DNA of 64,000 nucleotides from positions 40,992 to 104,991 of the forward strand of contig OZ242284.1 of NCBI GenBank assembly GCA_965207355.1, read 5' to 3'. The notes under the pieces are model-generated. The model saw only the letters and a program-made list of their open reading frames with translations. It searched no databases and was not told where the DNA came from. The position numbers and the translations under genes are program-made. This DNA is from Dehalococcoidia bacterium. GTDB lineage: Bacteria > Chloroflexota > Dehalococcoidia > Lucifugimonadales > UBA1123. Below are positions 11,037-21,127 of the stretch, in pieces (position 1 is the first letter of the stretch; each line of letters begins with the position of its first letter).

Positions 11037-11143
11037 AAGCCGCTCCGAGTCCTGGTAGTCCGACAACTTAGTTGTGATGGATATTCCTATTCCGATTTGT
11101 CCCCTCTCCCTTGGGCTCACAGGGATAGGCAAACATCCAGTCA

Positions 11144-11206
11144 CCTACGAAATCCGATCAATAGATCCCCTCTCCCTCAGGGAGAGGGCTAGGGTGAGGG
11201 TGAAAA
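11144..11206 (+). repeat. REP-like element, family A (extended form)
   Basis: 'cctacgaaatccgatcaatagatcccctctccctcagggagagggctagggtgagggtgaaaa', inside the E1alpha/E1beta intercistronic gap. Confidence 0.9.
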
Positions 11207-11246
11207 CACACTGTCCCACAGAGGGTTGATGTCTATTAGATAGCTT

Positions 11247-12264: not shown

Positions 12265-12321
12265 AAAATCCCCTCTTCTTTATCCCCTCTCCCTCTGGGA
12301 GAGGGCTAGGGTGAGGGTGAA
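12265..12321 (+). repeat. REP-like element, family A (half copy plus full copy)
   Basis: 'aaaatcccctcttctttatcccctctccctctgggagagggctagggtgagggtgaa', between the E3 and E1alpha cistrons. Confidence 0.9.
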
Positions 12322-12358: not shown

Positions 12359-13741
12359 TCAGATATGTATCGCCTCGCCCTCCGCGGCGAGAGCGGCCTC
12401 CTTGACCGTCTCGGAGATTGTCGGATGCGGATGTACCAGCCAGCCAAGCTCGGTCGTGGTCGCCTCGAGCAACTTCGTCATTCCGAGTTCGCCGAGCAGT
12501 TCCGTAACTTCGGCCCCTATCATGTGCGCGCCCAGAATCTCCCCGATTTCCTCGTCAACCACCAGCTTCACCATGCCCTCGGACTCGTTCATCGCAAGCG
12601 CCTTGCCACTGGCGGCCATGGGAAAGCGGCCCACCTTGACCGGATAGCCCTGCTCCCTCGCCTGGGCCTCGGTCAGGCCGAAGCTCGCCACCTGTGGTCG
12701 GCAGTATATGGCCCTGGGTATCTGGACATAGTCCAGCGGCTGTGGGTCGAGGCCGGCAATGCACTCGACAGCCGTTACGCCCTGTGCGGACGCAACGTGC
12801 GCCAGCAGCATCTTTCCGGTAACGTCGCCTATCGCGTAGATGTTTGGGACGTTTGTGCGCATGGAATCGTCAACTGGTATGAATCCGCGTTCGGTACGGA
12901 CGCCCGCGGCTTCCAGGCCGATGCCCGCGGTGTTGCCCTGCACTCCCACCGCCACCAGTACCTTGTCACACTCTTCTACCATGTTCTCCGTGTCGGTCGA
13001 GATCGACACCCGGGCTGAACTGCCGTTCACCGAGATACCCTCCACCTGAGCCCCGGTAACGCTCTTGATGCCCTGCCGTCTGAATGAACGTTCGAGTTGA
13101 TCGCTTATCTCTTCGTCCTCGTTGGGAATGAGGCGCGGCATTAGCTCGACCATAGTGACATCCGCGCCGTAGGAACTCCATACATATGCGAATTCGCAGC
13201 CGGTAGCGCCGCCACCGACTATCACAACCCGGCCTGGGACCTCTCGGAGTTCAAGCGCCTCGCGGCTGGTGATGACGGTCTCGTGGTCTATCGGCAGACC
13301 CGGAATGTCTCTCTGGCTCGCGCCGGTGGCTACTATGATGTGATTCGCCGACACCAAGCTGCCGTCTTCGGTGATGCGGACGGTGTTCGCGTCCTGAAGG
13401 ACTCCCGTCCCCTGGATGTGGTCCACCTTATTCTTGCGCAGCAGCGATCCGACTCCACGGGTCAGCCGACCGACGACCGTGCGACTGCGGTCAATCGCCT
13501 TCCCGAAGTCCGGGTTCACGTCGCCGACGCCGATGCCGTACTCGTCGGCGTGTCGGATGATGCTGAGCACCTCGGCATTTCGGAGAAGGGCCTTGGATGG
13601 GATACATCCCCAGTTGAGGCAGATACCGCCAAGAGTGTCCCTCTCGACGACCGCCGTCCTCATACCCAACTGTCCGGCGCGAATTGCGGCTACATATCCC
13701 CCCGGACCTGAGCCGAGAACCAATACATCATATTCAGGCAA
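12359..13741 (-). CDS. lpdA: dihydrolipoyl dehydrogenase (E3)
   Basis: 460 aa. 'GSGPGGYVAAIRAGQLG', redox disulfide 'CLNWGCIPSK', C-terminal 'HPHPTISE'. Confidence 0.92.
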   Translation of the reverse strand: MPEYDVLVLGSGPGGYVAAIRAGQLGMRTAVVERDTLGGICLNWGCIPSKALLRNAEVLSIIRHADEYGIGVGDVNPDFGKAIDRSRTVVGRLTRGVGSLLRKNKVDHIQGTGVLQDANTVRITEDGSLVSANHIIVATGASQRDIPGLPIDHETVITSREALELREVPGRVVIVGGGATGCEFAYVWSSYGADVTMVELMPRLIPNEDEEISDQLERSFRRQGIKSVTGAQVEGISVNGSSARVSISTDTENMVEECDKVLVAVGVQGNTAGIGLEAAGVRTERGFIPVDDSMRTNVPNIYAIGDVTGKMLLAHVASAQGVTAVECIAGLDPQPLDYVQIPRAIYCRPQVASFGLTEAQAREQGYPVKVGRFPMAASGKALAMNESEGMVKLVVDEEIGEILGAHMIGAEVTELLGELGMTKLLEATTTELGWLVHPHPTISETVKEAALAAEGEAIHI

Positions 13742-14228
13742 CGACGAACCTCTTGAATAGTCTTATCATGGTCGTCCAAACGACCCAAACCATTCTACAC
13801 CAAACCGACGAGCCATAAAAGTTTGAGAAACGCCGCCGCGCCGGATCCGCCCTGGCAGCTGTTGCGCGCAAGCGCAGAAATCCCTTCCCCTTCAGATTCG
13901 TCGGTTCGGGCGAGATCATAAATTGTTCTTTATAATTTACTGGTGGGGTTACAAGTGAGTTTCCAAGTGGGACAGGATGCGAGTCACGTGGAAAGTGACC
14001 TGTTATCACCTGTTGTTAGCTACGGACCGAAAAATTTTCTTCGGCGGATTCATTTTTGATAATCTCTTGTTTATGCACCGAATGCCCGGAGCGGCGTTTT
14101 CCACGCGCCCATTATAGCGGACGGAATATATGTTCGTCTAGGGAGAGCGGAAGTCGGAATATACAAGAGAGGGAGCCCAGGCGCAGAGCTTCAGATCCGA
14201 TTGCCCTGAGGGTGTCTCAGTGGGATTT

Positions 14229-14645
14229 CTACCAGTCCGACGACACCTCATAGAACAGAAGGCGCTTCCGCCCGAAGTCGTAGTCCATTCGCATACGATT
14301 CAGTATGTTCACTCCCAATAGAGATTCCAAATCATCCGTCTCCTCGGATGGCTTCCCAACCGAGAGGATTATTCTGAACCTGTAGATTCTGTCGGCTCCC
14401 CGAAAAGATATATCGGCTGGTTCATCGTAGTAGATTTGTTCTCCGCCAACGCCGCTCATCCTGATCGGATTCTCCAGTTCGTCAAATGGAAAGTTGATGG
14501 TTTCGCTATCATCGGGACCTAGCGTGGTAACATCGGCTCCGGTGTCAACCAGAAAATCAACATACTCGCCGACGCCAAAACGGGGCAGATATACATACCC
14601 CCGCAGATAGGCGTGACCGTCCGACTTGAAAAATCCGTATATCAC
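14229..14645 (-). CDS. retropepsin-like (clan AA) aspartic protease
   Basis: 138 aa. Catalytic 'FLVDTGADVTTL' and 'LLGVNILNRMRMDYDF' near the C-terminus. GTG start overlaps the res stop (GTGA at 14642-14645). Confidence 0.7.
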   Translation of the reverse strand: MIYGFFKSDGHAYLRGYVYLPRFGVGEYVDFLVDTGADVTTLGPDDSETINFPFDELENPIRMSGVGGEQIYYDEPADISFRGADRIYRFRIILSVGKPSEETDDLESLLGVNILNRMRMDYDFGRKRLLFYEVSSDW

Positions 14646-17575
14646 AGGGGCCTCCGGTTGAACGGTGTCCGTATAACCTTGCGGCCCGGCGCCCGTATAA
14701 ATCTTCTGGCTACGTCGGATCGGTCTATTCCCAACTCATCCAGCTTGGCGAGGAGTTCCTTGGTAGACTCCGCGACAATCGCTTCCCCGCTGTCCGGCAT
14801 CGCAATCCACCTGTCCGGGTATTTCTCCACCAGGTCGTGATACTGATCCTCAATGAGCTTATGAAGCTCCTCAGCTCTGATGAATCCTTCGATCAGGACA
14901 GACTCGCCGCCCATCTTCTCAAGCCATTCAGGCATCTGTCTCCGTATTTCGTTATCTGACTTTTCCGCAACCATCATCTCCCTCCATCGCGCGGAAGGCA
15001 GACTGAACGCTTGAACGATGTCCGCGAACCTATGGGCGGGGATGTCTGAGTAATCTATCTGCGCCACTTTCACAAACCGCCAGGGTATCCCTGTGAGCGT
15101 GGATGCGTTGGCGCACCAGATATTGGCCGCCCTGTCTTTGTTGGCTACGTTGGTATCCTCCATGCCTTTGGTCTCAATAAGGTAATGTTGACGGTCGGGG
15201 CCAACCGCCACGAAGTCCGGGTAGTAATGGCGGATGTTACCAGTATTGGCGATGTACTGAATCTTGAAACCCAGGCGCAGGGGAATCTTGGCGAATCTGA
15301 CAATATCGGGGGCAGATTCCAGGAAACGAGCGAACCCGGCCTCGAACTCGTTATCCGCCGCGACCAGGTTGAACACGGTCTTGGACGCCAGGCAGGTAGG
15401 GCGCGACCACGGGAAAGGCTCGGTGTCGGATAGCCGGAACGGGGCAGACAGAAGAACGGGTTCCAGTTCCTGGCGCAGCAGCGGGCGTATAGCGCGAGCG
15501 AAGCCCTGCACGGTGAGAAAGCCGATGCCCGGCCTGGCCAGAATCGGGGCAAGCGAGTTGTCTTCGAGGTCAACCGGCTGTCCGAAAGCCCGACGCGCGA
15601 AGAATTCCCGCAGCTTATCCACGATGATGTCGAAATGACCGGGCAGATTCGTTTCCCTGCTGATTCGGGTGGCGTAGTAGCTGATTACTTCGCCGCAGGT
15701 GTTGGGACTCGGCAATTGATAAGTGCGCGCAAGCAACTCTTCGTCCGTGAGCGCGTCCAATCCCAGGTACTCGAACGATGTATCATCCCACGCTTCCAGG
15801 CTGAACGGCAGATTATCCACCTGAACAGTATCTATATTCAGTTTGGATATTTCCTCGCGTGTGTCGCTCCTGCGTTCATAGGCAGGCGATATGTTTGGAA
15901 TAGCGATGTCCATGTCTATCTTGTCCGTGTCGGGATAGATGGATACGATGACTATCGGCTTCTGGTCAATCTTCTCTGTCGGCAGCGCGACGTCCTCTAT
16001 CTTCTCTAGGTCCGCCACGAACTCCATGAACTTCTCGGTTCCGATGATGTCCACTCGTTCACGATAGCCGCTCTCCACGCCCGCTTCACCCGGGAACATA
16101 AGCCGCAATCCGCGTCCAATCGCCTGCTCCGGCAGTATATTGGCTTTGGAACTATAGGGACGCAGCCCCAATACGACCGTGACGTTGCGAACGTCCCACC
16201 CTTCCCTCAGCATCATGACGCTGATTACGGCGTTGATAGCGCTATCGTCGGAATCTATGTCTTTGACTATCTCACGAGCCTTTTGCAGATCCCCAACCCT
16301 GGTCTTGGATGTGCTGAACTCGCCGTTGTTGTTGGTATGGATAACCTGCAACTTGCCATCGCCGAAATACGCTGGGTAGGTCTGTCGCAGATACTCGCCC
16401 ACGTTGTCCGCGTCTCTGGAACGCTCGAGCATGGCGAAAAGCACGGGCCTCTTGTTCAGAGGTTTTAGCTGGTCTCGATATTCCTGCCAGCGATTCACGG
16501 CCGCGGTTATGTATGCTCCGTAGTGGACGGATGCGTCAGCCGACTCCACTTCCCCGGCCCCGCTTATCTCTCCTCGAATAGGCTGCTTCACTATCCCGTC
16601 CTCTATGGCCGCCCTGAGCGGATAGTCGTATATAGTCCATGGAAACAAGGTCCCGTCGTTGAAGCGCGGCGTGGCGGAAAAGTCCAGCTGCGCCATGAAG
16701 CGCTTACCGCCCAGACGCTCGCGCAATCCCCGAATTGTCTGGTTCCAGGCCGAATCCTCGTCGTGAGTATGGTGCGCCTCGTCGTTGATTACCATTAGCG
16801 GCGCTCGTCTCCGCACTATCCTGTCATCGAAATCGTCGCGCTCGTCAGGCATATCACTGGCTGTCGGCCCCAGCAGGTCGGCTATTGGCACGGGTGGGCC
16901 GCTTGCGCGTCTTCCGCTTCTCCGGGGAGCGTCGTACAACTGCTGTACGTTGGTCAGATACACTGCGCCATGCGAAGAGAGATCAGCGCGGTCCCCACGC
17001 ATGAAGAACCGGACATCGCCCCACTCATCGCTGTACTCGGGCGGGATGATTGGTAGGTGGCGGAACAACGACCCGCCCGCGAAGTCCCCCTGGAGCCGCT
17101 CGAATACTATGACGTTCGGCGCTATTATCAGAAAACTGGTCGCGTACTCATCGCAATCCGGTTCGTTCACCGCGTTGAGATAACTCCACGCCACGCACAG
17201 CGCCATTACCATCGTCTTGCCGCTGCCCGTTGCCATCTTGACACCGTAGCGCGCGAAGTCGCCATACTGAAGCAGCCGGACATCGGGATTGGGCAGGAAC
17301 GCTTCAAGCAGCGTCCTGTTATCCCGCCGCTTCATAACCTCATAGACGTAAATCAGCGACTCGACCGCCTCGCGCTGCGCATCGTAGAACGCGAATGGTT
17401 TGCCCTCAACCTCGTGGTCGGTATCGAACCACCACTCCAGCAGTCGCTTTGTCGTGTCGGTCGCGCTAGGATAACCCGCGTCGCGCCACTCGCGGACGGC
17501 GGACGCTACCGCCGGGGCGCAAGTGGCCGCTAGGTTGTCGGCGGCGAGAGACTCAGTCAGCAGTTGCCGAGTCAT
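14642..17575 (-). CDS. res: Type III restriction endonuclease, Res subunit, with extra C-terminal domain
   Basis: 977 aa. SF2 helicase motifs 'ATGSGKT', 'INDEAHH', 'MLREGWDVRNV', 'QAIGRGLR'. PD-(D/E)xK nuclease 'YYPDFVAV...YLIETKG'. About 120 further residues follow the nuclease. Confidence 0.9.
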   Translation of the reverse strand: MTRQLLTESLAADNLAATCAPAVASAVREWRDAGYPSATDTTKRLLEWWFDTDHEVEGKPFAFYDAQREAVESLIYVYEVMKRRDNRTLLEAFLPNPDVRLLQYGDFARYGVKMATGSGKTMVMALCVAWSYLNAVNEPDCDEYATSFLIIAPNVIVFERLQGDFAGGSLFRHLPIIPPEYSDEWGDVRFFMRGDRADLSSHGAVYLTNVQQLYDAPRRSGRRASGPPVPIADLLGPTASDMPDERDDFDDRIVRRRAPLMVINDEAHHTHDEDSAWNQTIRGLRERLGGKRFMAQLDFSATPRFNDGTLFPWTIYDYPLRAAIEDGIVKQPIRGEISGAGEVESADASVHYGAYITAAVNRWQEYRDQLKPLNKRPVLFAMLERSRDADNVGEYLRQTYPAYFGDGKLQVIHTNNNGEFSTSKTRVGDLQKAREIVKDIDSDDSAINAVISVMMLREGWDVRNVTVVLGLRPYSSKANILPEQAIGRGLRLMFPGEAGVESGYRERVDIIGTEKFMEFVADLEKIEDVALPTEKIDQKPIVIVSIYPDTDKIDMDIAIPNISPAYERRSDTREEISKLNIDTVQVDNLPFSLEAWDDTSFEYLGLDALTDEELLARTYQLPSPNTCGEVISYYATRISRETNLPGHFDIIVDKLREFFARRAFGQPVDLEDNSLAPILARPGIGFLTVQGFARAIRPLLRQELEPVLLSAPFRLSDTEPFPWSRPTCLASKTVFNLVAADNEFEAGFARFLESAPDIVRFAKIPLRLGFKIQYIANTGNIRHYYPDFVAVGPDRQHYLIETKGMEDTNVANKDRAANIWCANASTLTGIPWRFVKVAQIDYSDIPAHRFADIVQAFSLPSARWREMMVAEKSDNEIRRQMPEWLEKMGGESVLIEGFIRAEELHKLIEDQYHDLVEKYPDRWIAMPDSGEAIVAESTKELLAKLDELGIDRSDVARRFIRAPGRKVIRTPFNRRPL

Positions 17576-19539
17576 GTCTTCACCTCCAGTCGGCGCGTGG
17601 TGTCGTTGCCTAATATGTCTATCACCTTCACCACGATGGTATGACCGTCGCCGCTGTCATACTCGTGCCGGGCGTTCAAACGAAGCTGAGACTCCTGCCG
17701 TGTCCGGTAGCTCTGCCACTGGTTGTTAAACGTATCCTCGTGGTAGTCCCAGTCCACCGCCCAGTAGTCAATCCACTGAGACCAGTGCGTGACCTTCTCA
17801 CGAACCTCGCTCGGAACGTCGCCCAGAGGCATCGTGAAGTCTTCCAGAGTCAGCGAAACCTCCCGACGCTTGACCTTCGTCTCCACCGCTAGCGCCGCAA
17901 GCTCGAAGAAGCGAATATCGCCCGCGTCAACCGCTTTCCTGTCCATCACCTCGCGCGGTATTCGCAGAAGGCGAACGCCGACGCCCGCTGTGTCCGCTAT
18001 CCGACGCGCCTCAGTGTCCACCTCCAGCCCGTAGTCCCAACTCAGAATATCCACGCCGCGCGATGTTGGCGCCTCTTTGCCGTTTCCGGCGACACTTGAA
18101 AATTCATCAACGACGTTCTGGATGTCGCCCAGCGCCACCGGTGAATCCACCGCGCCTACGTGAACCAGCCGTCCCGATTTCGCCCCATGCAGCCACTGGT
18201 AGCCGCTCACCGGATTAGCGCGATACATCTGAAGGATGAACTCGCGGTAGGGACGCTCCAAGTCCTCGGACTGCCAAGCCTGCCTCTCGTAACGGCCCAT
18301 GTTCTGAACATGGAATGGTTTGACATCGGGAATATCCAGTAGACGTTTGCGGGAAGTGGATATTGCGAACCGGCCCATGTCGGCAGCAATCCAGCGCCGC
18401 CCCAACTTTTCTGCGACCGCGGCAGTCGTGCCGGACCCGATGAAACAGTCCAGCACCAGATCATCTTTGTTGGATGAGGCTTTCATGATGCGTTCGATTA
18501 AGGCTTCTGGCTTTTGGGTAGGGTAGGTGAGGCGCTCAACAGATGTATTCCCGACTCTATGGACATCGGTCCATAGAGTCTGAGCCTTCTGACCAGGGTT
18601 ATCATCGAGGTAAGTTATTCGACCCCGCATTTTGGCGTTGCCATTACGCGCTAATTCAATTCTACCCTCAGCCAACATCCTCTCAAGGGTGCCTCTGTCA
18701 TAAGCCCATGAACGGGACTGGCTAGGCCTTACTCCTCGCCATTCAAATTGCCGATTGGGAGTTGCACCTGGCGCAGTTAGATCGTCAGTTTTGTAATATC
18801 GCCCTTCCTTGTCTTTGCGATATTCTTTCAATTCAGTCGAAGATAATGTGTGATAGACCTGGTTCCAAACTGCGGACGGGGATTTAACATAGAATAGAAT
18901 GTAATCGACTATTTGCCCGAACTTCTTAGTGACAGCATTGTTGGAACTTTGACGTTTCCATACGATCTCATTTCTGAAGTTCTCGTATCCGAAAATATCG
19001 TCCATCACTGCTTTGGTGTAATGGCTGGTTCTCCAGTCGCAATGAACATAAATGGACCCTGACTCCGAGAGCAGTTCGTGCAGCAGAGTTAGCGTCTCGT
19101 ACATCCACTTGAGATATGTGTCCAGCCCACCTCCCCAAGTATCCCGATAGGCTATCTGCTCTATCAGGTTGGGCTGGTACTCTAGAGTCAGGTTAGAATT
19201 TCGGTTTCTGCCCCTCCCTGTAATATGGTCTGTCTTTGCTGGATGTACTTGAGCTTGGTATTCGAAATTTGCGCCAGTGGCGAATGGTGGATCAATATAG
19301 ATGAGGTTAACCTTACCTGCGAATTTGTCCAGCAGGGACGGGAGCACATACTTCTTGTCGCCCCAGATGAGGCGGTTGCGCCACTCGGAGTCTCCCCGGT
19401 GGGGTGCGGTCAGGGCCATCTGGCGTTCTTGCGCTGACTGGTTGACCGTCTCCACCGTCTGGAACGGCAACGACACACGCGGCGGCCCAACGATCTGCCC
19501 GTTGTCGTCGTACTTGCCTTCCCATATCAATTCCGGCAT
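17572..19539 (-). CDS. mod: Type III DNA methyltransferase, Mod subunit (beta-class N6A/N4C)
   Basis: 655 aa. Motif IV 'LIYIDPPF' precedes motif I 'CFIGSGTTAAVAEKLGRRWIAADM'. The stop overlaps the res start (ATGA at 17572-17575). Confidence 0.9.
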   Translation of the reverse strand: MPELIWEGKYDDNGQIVGPPRVSLPFQTVETVNQSAQERQMALTAPHRGDSEWRNRLIWGDKKYVLPSLLDKFAGKVNLIYIDPPFATGANFEYQAQVHPAKTDHITGRGRNRNSNLTLEYQPNLIEQIAYRDTWGGGLDTYLKWMYETLTLLHELLSESGSIYVHCDWRTSHYTKAVMDDIFGYENFRNEIVWKRQSSNNAVTKKFGQIVDYILFYVKSPSAVWNQVYHTLSSTELKEYRKDKEGRYYKTDDLTAPGATPNRQFEWRGVRPSQSRSWAYDRGTLERMLAEGRIELARNGNAKMRGRITYLDDNPGQKAQTLWTDVHRVGNTSVERLTYPTQKPEALIERIMKASSNKDDLVLDCFIGSGTTAAVAEKLGRRWIAADMGRFAISTSRKRLLDIPDVKPFHVQNMGRYERQAWQSEDLERPYREFILQMYRANPVSGYQWLHGAKSGRLVHVGAVDSPVALGDIQNVVDEFSSVAGNGKEAPTSRGVDILSWDYGLEVDTEARRIADTAGVGVRLLRIPREVMDRKAVDAGDIRFFELAALAVETKVKRREVSLTLEDFTMPLGDVPSEVREKVTHWSQWIDYWAVDWDYHEDTFNNQWQSYRTRQESQLRLNARHEYDSGDGHTIVVKVIDILGNDTTRRLEVKT

Positions 19540-19828
19540 CGGACCTCTCCCTCAAATCTGTCCACGATTAGTTATAACGCACGATTCGCATTTTACACCA
19601 CCCCGATATTTCATACATAGGCGGAGCTAAAGCTGTATTACATGTTTGGCGTGGAGCGATGCAGTGATGCTTGATCCCCTCCCTTCCTCAACACATTCGT
19701 TCTGTGCTACAATTCCACCATCAAAACAAGCCGAACAGACCGAACAGACATAAATTAAAACTTATGGCAAAGGCTCATGGGGCCAAAGAAAAATTTTCCC
19801 CAAAGCTAACGCAGGCGAATCTCTGGTG

Positions 19829-19857
19829 CCTAACAGGTGTTCTAATCACCTGTTAGG
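19829..19857. promoter_or_regulatory. perfect 11-bp inverted repeat (possible operator) upstream of mod
   Basis: 'cctaacaggtg-ttctaat-cacctgttagg'. Further CACCTGTT/CGCCTGT words follow up to 19900. Confidence 0.4.
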
Positions 19858-20074
19858 CGCCTGTCGGTCACCAGTTAAGCCACCTGTTGCCGCCTGTGGC
19901 TTTATAAACGAAAGTATATAACCGAGCGAATCCGTCCAATAGAATGGCCGACTTCGCAAAACCCTGACAGTTCACGAATTTCACATATGAAGGCTCACAA
20001 AGATAGACAAATATGCGATCATCTCAACAGATCCCCTCTCCCTCAGGGCTTACAAGGGTTGGTAAATGTTCAAT

Positions 20075-20154
20075 CAGCTACGAACTCCAGTCAATAGATC
20101 CCCTCTCCCTCAGGGAGAGGGCTAGGGTGAGGGTGAAAACCTACCCCTCTCAGC
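20075..20154 (+). repeat. REP-like element, family A (extended ~80-nt form)
   Basis: 'cagctacgaactccagtcaatagatcccctctccctcagggagagggctagggtgagggtgaaaacctacccctctcagc'. A truncated half copy lies at 20031-20049. Confidence 0.9.
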
Positions 20155-20172
20155 TATATTTAGGAGAAGACA

Positions 20173-21033
20173 ATGACAACACGAACTCCCACGATTGACT
20201 CTCAGGTACACGCCTACGAGCGCGACAGCGCCGAACGCCCCTGGCAGGGCCACCTAACCGGACCGGAGGAGGTAACCGGAGACGACATGGTCGCCGCGAT
20301 GGACGCCGTCGGCGTGGATGGCGCGCTGCTCGTCTCCCCCTACTCCATGTATCGCTTCGACGCCAGCTACGCCCTGGAGGTTTACGCGAAGCACGCCGGC
20401 AAATTCGGCCTGATAAGGCCGTTCGACCCCGAGTCCGACACGATAGAGGACGACATGGCCGAGTGGACCGGAACGCCCGGCGTGGTCGGTGCGCGCATCA
20501 TGCTCAGCTACGGCACTTACACGGCAGACCATCCCGGCCTGAACCGCATACTCGCCGCCGGCGGTCAAGCCGGTGTACCGATAAACGTCATGAGTTCGGG
20601 CCACCTCCCGCTGCTGCGCGAACTCGCCCTGCGGAATTCCGGCACCCGGATAGTCATAGACCACCTCGGAATACCCCAGCCCTTTGAGCCGCCCGTGCCT
20701 CCGGACCCGTTCGCCGACCTGGACAGCGTTGTGGCAATGGCGGAACTGGATAACGTGGTCATCAAGATATCTGGGGCCTGCACGCTGTCGCATGAGCCGT
20801 TCCCGTACCCCGACATCTGGGAGCCCCTGGGCAAGATATTCGAGGCGTTCGGCCTGGAGCGGTGTATGTGGGGCACGGACTGGACGAGGGCGATCAACAT
20901 GCTGAACTACGAACAGGGCGTCGAGTCCTTCCGCGTCACGGATAGCCTCAGCGATTCGGAGCGCGCGACGCTGATGGGCGGAGCCTTATCGAACATCTAC
21001 AACTGGTCCCCGGACGTTGGCTCACAAGGGTAG
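20173..21033 (+). CDS. amidohydrolase-2 family metal-dependent hydrolase
   Basis: 286 aa. 'IDSQVHAY' N-terminal His motif, 'IDHLG', 'WGTDW'. Confidence 0.78.
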   Translation: MTTRTPTIDSQVHAYERDSAERPWQGHLTGPEEVTGDDMVAAMDAVGVDGALLVSPYSMYRFDASYALEVYAKHAGKFGLIRPFDPESDTIEDDMAEWTGTPGVVGARIMLSYGTYTADHPGLNRILAAGGQAGVPINVMSSGHLPLLRELALRNSGTRIVIDHLGIPQPFEPPVPPDPFADLDSVVAMAELDNVVIKISGACTLSHEPFPYPDIWEPLGKIFEAFGLERCMWGTDWTRAINMLNYEQGVESFRVTDSLSDSERATLMGGALSNIYNWSPDVGSQG

Positions 21034-21046
21034 GTGAATTTGCAGC

Positions 21047-21127
21047 CAGCTACGAACTCCGGACGATAGATCCCCTCTCCCTCTGGGAGAGGGCTAGGGT
21101 GAGGGTGAAATACCTCCCTCTCTCAGC
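21047..21127 (+). repeat. REP-like element, family A (extended ~80-nt form)
   Basis: 'cagctacgaactccggacgatagatcccctctccctctgggagagggctagggtgagggtgaaatacctccctctctcagc', a direct repeat of 20075-20154. Confidence 0.9.

Follow-up and report, generated by a model that had tools for sequence, protein, structure and literature searches.

A Type III restriction–modification cassette probably joined by loss of a stop codon to an independent DUF5678–protease module in a Dehalococcoidia bacterium

Introduction

Canonical Type III restriction–modification (R-M) systems, such as EcoP15I and EcoP1I, consist of a mod gene followed by a res gene across a stop/start overlap, encoding a β-class methyltransferase (Mod) and a restriction subunit (Res) in which superfamily 2 (SF2) helicase motifs are combined with a C-terminal PD-(D/E)xK nuclease. 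The same features are found in a minus-strand array within a 64,000-nt stretch of a Dehalococcoidia bacterium (assembly GCA_965207355.1, contig OZ242284.1, positions 40,992 to 104,991), hereafter called the window. The array departs from the canonical systems in that Res has gained an extra 110-aa DUF5678 domain through loss of its stop codon, and in that it continues with two more genes, the last of which encodes a retropepsin-like aspartic protease. A preliminary description of the locus had assigned this protease to the Type III system as its third component, co-expressed with and functionally tied to the restriction enzyme. The analysis presented here points to a different origin: the array is probably the product of two independent units, a canonical mod-res cassette and a self-contained DUF5678–protease module of ~770 bp, that became joined with loss of the res stop codon.

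Several described systems share parts of this layout. PrrC is a latent anticodon nuclease encoded in the EcoprrI Type I R-M locus and kept silent by the R-M enzyme; here too a candidate effector gene lies in or beside an R-M operon, a logic that the fused Res-DUF5678 protein could in principle embody. However, PrrC is an ABC-ATPase/anticodon nuclease rather than an aspartic protease, it almost never occurs outside R-M loci, whereas the DUF5678–protease pair is mostly found alone, and the analogy is one of gene layout, any regulation by Res being hypothetical here. Type II toxin–antitoxin (TA) modules are similar in having a small upstream gene, a downstream enzyme, a 4-nt overlap and strict pairing (71/71 for the pair), as well as several copies per genome, movement between contexts and a moderate ω (ratio of nonsynonymous to synonymous divergence). 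They differ in that the small partner here has no DNA-binding or antitoxin fold recognizable in sequence and fold searches, and we know of no TA toxin that is an aspartic protease.

In the PADLOC database, the candidate system PDC-M08 is likewise a two-gene cassette, in which a small upstream protein is followed by a retropepsin-like protein. The PDC systems are 145 'guilt-by-embedding' candidates obtained from cassettes inside BREX, DISARM or Type I R-M loci, the separate HEC candidates having come from Hma (Payne et al., bioRxiv 10.1101/2024.01.29.577857). The embedding systems in that set are thus not Type III, the relationship to the window protease is distant (32.8 bits), and the A component of the window, unlike that of PDC-M08, is fused to Res. 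The Asp_prot associated with CRISPR type III-D in Sulfolobales (Saci_1895) is another small retropepsin-like protein adjoining an immune system, and it shares with the window protein the single-lobe DTG architecture and a length of ~100–140 aa (PMC3973734). A search of a literature library returned no paper on DUF5678 in this context (the single match was an unrelated plant-pathogen paper), none linking retropepsin-like proteins to anti-phage defence and none with PDC-M08 in its main text; the relevant items were the PADLOC 'embedding' preprint and the archaeal CRISPR survey.

Organization of the locus

The array and the units into which it is divided here are as follows.

17572-19539, minus strand: mod, an open reading frame (ORF) of 655 aa
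14642-17575, minus strand: the res ORF including its tail, 977 aa
14229-14645, minus strand: the third ORF, a retropepsin-like aspartic protease of 138 aa
14988-19550, minus strand: the mod-res cassette, its limits set by DNA homology to L088, a metagenomic contig of independent origin
14987-17575, minus strand: res proper, residues 1-863, SF2 helicase (ResIII) and C-terminal PD-(D/E)xK endonuclease
14975-14986, minus strand: the junction codons TGG AGG GAG ATG (W864 R865 E866 M867), read from the sequence
14642-14974, minus strand: the DUF5678-type partner gene, 110 aa plus stop, with its own ATG at 14974-14972, placed by profile and homologues
14201-14985, minus strand: the DUF5678–protease cassette, delimited by 89-93% DNA identity to L087, L086 and L084, where it stands in differing contexts

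The two overlaps by which the three ORFs had originally been chained are borne out. ATGA is shared by mod and res at 17572-17575, as follows from the coordinates, and GTGA by res and the protease gene at 14642-14645, where the sequence reads 'CCC CTG TGA' in one frame and 'GTG ATA TAC' in the other; every motif quoted for Mod, Res and the protease was also located in the translations. The block had been regarded as one insert of ~5.8 kb. An extra block is indeed present, but DNA homology resolves it into two cassettes of separate history. In a scan of 13700-20300 for promoters and terminators, the counts were not above those in shuffled sequence, which makes the scan uninformative, and Rfam and tRNA scans of the window gave no match, so no integration-site tRNA is present.

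For comparison, 169 loci were fetched (loci are numbered with L, proteins with P), among them a set of 80 that encode relatives of the protease and come mostly from Dehalococcoidia or other Chloroflexota, with a few from Alphaproteobacteria and Binatia.

The Res tail as partner of the protease

Residues 868-977 of Res form a 110-aa C-terminal extension that was missed in the preliminary description, and no Pfam domain is placed on Res past ~residue 824. The extension matches Pfam DUF5678 (PF18929) weakly (14.5–15.6 bits, E 0.014–0.033, gathering score 23.2); 5 of 10 homologous partner proteins lie above that gathering score, and a hidden Markov model (HMM) of the partner proteins hits the Res tail with 92 bits (E 1.4e-27). 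Its nearest relatives are free-standing proteins of 110 aa, 76–94% identical, which start with 'MVAEKSDNEI', that is, at the position of Res residue 868. A small ORF, often overlapping by 4 nt, is located directly upstream of the protease gene in 38 of the 43 closest loci, and the C-terminal part of these small ORFs aligns to the Res tail without internal gaps, with the common pattern '...YPDxWVA...G..V.A.....L..VL...D..G..R......F......IL'. When the 169 loci were searched with local HMMs, the protease was found directly downstream on the same strand for 71/71 DUF5678-type matches, frequently with the 4-nt overlap, and the partner was free-standing (~72–170 aa) in 69 of them. A further 17 DUF5678–protease pairs from metagenome contigs are all unfused, and an exhaustive profile search of 1.84 billion representatives yielded 2720 partner-family clusters, the 150 top-ranked of which all have lengths of 72–254 aa.

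These comparisons identify the Res tail as the actual partner of the protease, a DUF5678-type small protein. Given that the pairing is conserved, the translational coupling belongs to the DUF5678–protease pair and not to Res. Co-transcription of the protease with mod-res is likely, because the genes are co-directional and leave no room for a promoter of the protease itself.

In an AlphaFold2 (AF2) model (mean predicted local distance difference test score, pLDDT, 77), the partner is composed of three helices, a small β-β-α-β domain and a disordered C-terminal tail. The identity of the tail with a known antitoxin or another known fold was considered and rejected, since neither a profile search of the PDB nor Foldseek on the AF2 model gave anything significant. 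Two minor observations concern the partner family. P0086, a 131-aa protein from a JGI metagenome, is a deletion product in which a DUF5678 protein is fused to the initial and final residues of the protease ('...RAPGRSHTDAVQPEAPVIYGFFKYDFRRRRLLFYEVSADW'); as a natural deletion product, it indicates that the pair can decay in some genomes. In addition, the partners in L017 and L029 weakly match PADLOC models of MTase_II and orphan methyltransferases over an internal segment of these models (~79-142, E 0.003–0.01), and a DUF5678-like segment may therefore be part of certain methyltransferase families.

The retropepsin-like protease

The 138-aa ORF passes the gathering score of PF13650 (Asp_protease_2; 28.7 bits vs 24.3) and falls slightly under that of PF13975 (27.5 vs 28.2). 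It carries the motifs VDTGAD, with catalytic D34 within DTG, and SLLGVNIL, and the stretches F31-L32-V33-D34-T35-G36 and S108-L109-L110-G111 are unchanged across 21 homologues. Its AF2 model (pLDDT 87) has a single retropepsin lobe, the top Foldseek match of which is Rickettsia APRc (5c9f, E 2.2e-6, TM-score 0.67), with other matches to the FIV, HIV, RSV and Ddi1 proteases. The initial assignment of the ORF as retropepsin-like is thus upheld by profile and fold alike, and the protein is a retropepsin-like aspartic protease, predicted to be of the homodimer type. Its suggested placement in the AF_0612-type family was rejected, the score against TIGR03698 (16.1 bits) being far under the cut-off of 57.35; TIGR02281 was not matched either (20.4 bits vs 57.95). 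The GTG start of the protease gene overlaps the TGA stop of the partner gene.

APRc is comparable in its single-lobe DTG fold of ~100–140 aa, but it has no DUF5678 partner and is the soluble domain of a membrane-embedded protein, unlike the window protease. Membrane-type homologues of the protease (L044-L080) also stand without the partner gene.

The mod-res cassette

Mod contains IDPPF and then FIGSG, that is, DPPF ahead of FxGxG, and scores 157.8 bits against PF01555 and E 1.6e-112 against PADLOC MTase_III. By these motifs and profiles, it is a Type III β-class N6/N4 DNA methyltransferase with its target-recognition domain (TRD) between motif IV and motif I. Res proper carries ATGSGKT, NDEAHH, QAIGRGLR and PD...ETK, and exceeds the gathering score both of PF04851 (ResIII, 52.8 bits) and, over residues 732-824, of PF19778 (RE_endonuc, 27.2 bits vs 23.4); its match to the NCBIfam Type III endonuclease model PRK15483 is weak (18.8 bits vs a cut-off of 564).

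Res proper ends with '...AFSLPSAR', and its two closest orthologues, P0090 and P0091, stop at 'SLPSAR*'. The C-terminus of the closest orthologues is '...FADIVQAFSLPSAR*', whereas the window protein runs on as 'SAR-WREM-MVAEK'. The 119 best Res orthologues (50–87% identity) are mostly ~850–860 aa long and cover 65–90% of the query, mostly 86–88%; none of them has the 110-aa tail, which is found only in the window's own protein (P0089). Moreover, the orthologous cassette in L088 consists of mod and res only, with unrelated genes next and no DUF5678–protease pair. Judged from these relatives, mod-res in the window is a canonical two-gene Type III cassette that requires no further gene.

One part of mod stands apart from the rest of the cassette:

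~18538-18957, minus strand: variable target-recognition region of mod, where homology to L088 breaks and GC content dips to 0.46

The segment has no homology to the L088 cassette, which is elsewhere 76–79% identical, and it is probably a swapped TRD; if so, methylation and restriction specificity would be altered.

The junction between the two cassettes

At the DNA level, blastn aligns window positions 19550-18958 and 18537-14988 with positions 807-5274 of L088 at 76–79% identity, so that the mod-res cassette begins 11 nt ahead of the mod ATG and ends with the final sense codon of res. Since homology to mod-res ends at 14988 and homology to the pair starts at 14985, the two cassettes meet within 2–3 nt. 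The codon TGG (14986-14984) occupies the position of the res stop, where L088 has TAA ('TCG GTA A..'), and one G-to-A change at 14984 or 14985 would restore the stop. The Shine–Dalgarno sequence of the small gene, GGAGG (14985-14981), is retained within res, 6 nt ahead of the ATG, and the same spacing is found in the free-standing relatives in L087 and L086. From these comparisons, we read the Res-DUF5678 fusion as a recent event, seen in one genome only, and the apparent three-cistron operon as a recent, single-genome join of two units.

It is very unlikely that the fusion is an artefact of sequencing or assembly, whether a miscalled stop base or a chimeric join between genes that are in fact separate. 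The fused protein is recorded from a single contig (P0089), and the fusion hangs on one TGG codon at the point where P0090 and P0091 stop; however, the two units are joined cleanly and in frame, independent contigs match the sequence on either side as far as the join, the fused protein sits on a contig of 3.44 Mb, and like read-through is seen at two other independent loci. Even if the stop were restored, the genes would be separated by 11 nt and would still form an operon-like array.

Other in-frame fusions

The two other loci, L009 (5664-7004) and L016 (3921-7004), are syntenic, and a 72-aa DUF5678 gene is present in both, with homology between the loci resuming precisely at its ATG. Upstream of this ATG, L016 carries an MmeI-family enzyme with its full set of domains (hel, Mtase, TRD and C) and L009 a DUF2806 protein; both read in frame, with no stop, into DUF5678, and the protease comes next. 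The start of the L009 ORF keeps a short remnant that resembles the C-terminus of MmeI ('LLALNLERQG'). Together with the window, three independent read-through fusions are thus known among 72 pairs. Two more long upstream ORFs, in L005 and L035, were rejected as fusions, being run-on ORFs in GC-rich DNA with low-complexity N-termini. Because frames upstream of the small gene are often open in this GC-rich DNA, the fusions may be tolerated accidents.

Genomic contexts of the pair

The relatives at 89-93% DNA identity differ in what stands beside the pair. L087 is syntenic with the window on the lpd/E1 side and has another Type III R-M system on the opposite strand (Mod 26% identical; a 713-aa ResIII protein), while in L084 a type IIG enzyme lies 235 nt upstream of the pair, and in L086 other genes stand beside it. 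Elsewhere, L081 has a divergent Type III system near the pair, and L085, like L086, has other genes. A tblastn search with Mod and Res against the 169 loci found only L088, which itself lacks the pair; recurrence of the window's Res family beside protease homologues was therefore rejected, as no other protease locus carries that family. Between the window and L087, synonymous divergence (dS) is 0.10–0.22 for the pair and 0.70 for the adjacent lpd, and an ω of 0.2–0.36 indicates that the pair is under purifying selection. Second copies of the pair are present in L008, L035 and L086, and its distribution is patchy (Chloroflexota, some Alphaproteobacteria and Binatia). Taking these relatives together, we read the pair as a resident, exchangeable module with a variable R-M slot upstream.

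These contexts bear directly on the earlier proposal that the protease is an integral third Type III component, which might process or activate Res or serve as a back-up abortive-infection (Abi) effector restrained by Res, with the fusion acting as a PrrC-like tether. The genes are co-directional with 4-nt overlaps and no space for a separate promoter, Res is fused to the conserved partner domain of the protease, an MmeI-family enzyme and a DUF2806 protein are also fused to DUF5678 with the protease next, R-M genes recur upstream but not downstream of the pair, and the genes from which PDC-M08 was defined lie embedded in defence systems. Despite these points, the proposal is unlikely and is not supported here: the fusion is found in one genome, with 119 orthologues lacking the tail and the L088 cassette lacking the pair; the strict pairing is with DUF5678 (71/71); no fusion is present in 69/71 pairs, and R-M neighbours are absent from most pairs; the small gene retains its own Shine–Dalgarno sequence and ATG; one point change gives back the res stop; and R-M genes lie on the opposite strand in close relatives. 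A linkage to this particular mod-res likewise did not hold up in the neighbourhood survey, the closest relatives of the pair being free-standing beside differing R-M systems, some of them divergent, or beside no recognized R-M at all. Since R-M genes do recur upstream of the pair, a looser link to defence survives.

The extent of that link was assessed by a census of 48 loci, in which the two nearest ORFs on each side were assigned to Pfam families. Upstream neighbours include N6_N4_Mtase (3), MmeI/N6_Mtase (2), ResIII (2), nSTAND3 (4), AAA_5 (3) and IstB (2), the remainder being housekeeping genes, and none of these R-M, STAND, AAA_5 or IstB families is in the top-25 family table of downstream neighbours, where only metabolic and transport families are present. 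Because several R-M-positive loci are closely related, the upstream enrichment is real but modest. The protease also falls into a family already catalogued as a defence candidate, matching PDC-M08B (PDLC04405; a model without a curated cut-off) with E 1.5e-8 and 32.8 bits over positions 27-121 of 127. The pair thus resembles PDC-M08 as a distant relative.

Proposed origin and mechanism

The reading that we favour, and hold to be likely, is that of two independent units joined at the res stop codon. The pair would already have stood beside the lpd/E1 genes in this lineage, with the slot just upstream of it taking differing R-M cassettes in relatives, and in the window genome the mod-res cassette would have come to sit co-directionally in that slot. 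Because the two units meet precisely at the res stop codon, res reads in frame through four codons into DUF5678, giving a 977-aa chimera, and the fusion is best regarded as a recent by-product rather than a designed feature. Given that the DUF5678 gene keeps its own Shine–Dalgarno sequence and ATG, the free DUF5678 protein is probably still made, so that DUF5678 would be produced in two ways, as part of the Res chimera and from the internal start, and translation of the protease would remain coupled to the stop codon of DUF5678. In this genome the pair no longer has an upstream region of its own and would therefore have to be transcribed with mod-res.

As for function, the pair may act like a TA or Abi module, although this part is put forward tentatively. 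The dimeric protease would be kept inactive by the DUF5678 protein, possibly via the conserved '...PRxMIL' tail at the C-terminus of that protein, and would be freed by a signal of stress or infection. To our knowledge, nothing has been published on how the DUF5678–protease module works; if the proposal is true, an aspartic protease acting as TA or Abi effector would represent a new effector class.

Several findings weigh against one part or another of this account. The TA/Abi mechanism is one that we infer, and the partner has no match in fold or sequence to any known antitoxin and no detected DNA-binding domain. On the side of the defence link, PDC-M08A gave no match for the window tail and marginal ones (E 0.015 and 0.04) in two partner relatives, and most pair loci are flanked by housekeeping genes. 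No plasmid or phage copies were found by tblastn; one partial IMG/VR match lacks the partner gene. Finally, three fusions are more than pure accident easily explains, which leaves room for a functional link.

Some of these findings are what one would expect if the pair served in housekeeping, as a protease accompanied by its own regulator or chaperone, had no role in defence or addiction, and adjoined R-M genes in a variable region by chance. All downstream neighbours belong to metabolism or transport, as do most upstream ones, no plasmid or phage copies were found, and purifying selection on the pair fits such a role as well. This explanation is nevertheless improbable: the same cassette occurs at 89-93% identity in unrelated contexts, the dS of the pair is far under that of the neighbouring lpd, several copies are present per genome or locus, the distribution is patchy, and in the census R-M, STAND NTPase, McrB-like and insertion sequence genes are on the upstream side only.

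The room left by the fusions could be filled by a guard arrangement, in which DUF5678 is a docking or inhibitory domain and its fusions to the C-termini of Res, the MmeI-family enzyme and the DUF2806 protein have been selected; the host enzyme would then guard a latent protease that is freed, or that cuts the tail, upon phage attack on the restriction enzyme. Such an arrangement is quite unlikely; if real, it would amount to a counterpart of PrrC/EcoprrI built on a protease, and R-M-coupled abortive infection would gain a new class.

Under the favoured reading of two joined units, the locus does not represent a novel type of R-M system; what makes it interesting is an uncharacterized protease module that has repeatedly become fused to restriction enzymes. 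The unit is defined as a strictly paired DUF5678 and retropepsin-like module of ~770 bp with sharp boundaries, widespread in Chloroflexota and catalogued so far only as a defence candidate. The three natural fusions and the one-sided clustering of R-M genes offer concrete constructs for probing binding and control of the protease by DUF5678.

Additional observations

L084 (2949-3794) and L081 (1211-2176) each contain another, shorter retropepsin-like gene (120 aa; in L084 scoring 26.8 bits against PF13650), in both cases directly upstream of a gene of the Uma2 family (PD-(D/E)xK-like). Uma2 genes also occur after the pair in L086 and two genes past res in L088. The retropepsin-like and Uma2 genes may constitute another small protease-containing module of the same hotspot.

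In L085 (8643-11448), a 66-aa ORF, a gene for a 693-aa SMC_N/AAA_23 ATPase and a 175-aa ORF come after the pair, and a gene for a BrnA antitoxin lies close by; this array may be another defence-type system beside the pair.

In the window, a dispersed intergenic repeat of ~110 nt, resembling repetitive extragenic palindromic sequences or miniature inverted-repeat transposable elements, occurs at 20032-20154, 21019-21127 and 11100-11207, with 86–87% identity between copies, and 40-nt pieces of it are found at 842-881 and 12282-12321. The repeat flanks the amidohydrolase gene and is also located between the E1 genes, and a related intergenic copy is present in L086 (10647-10767).

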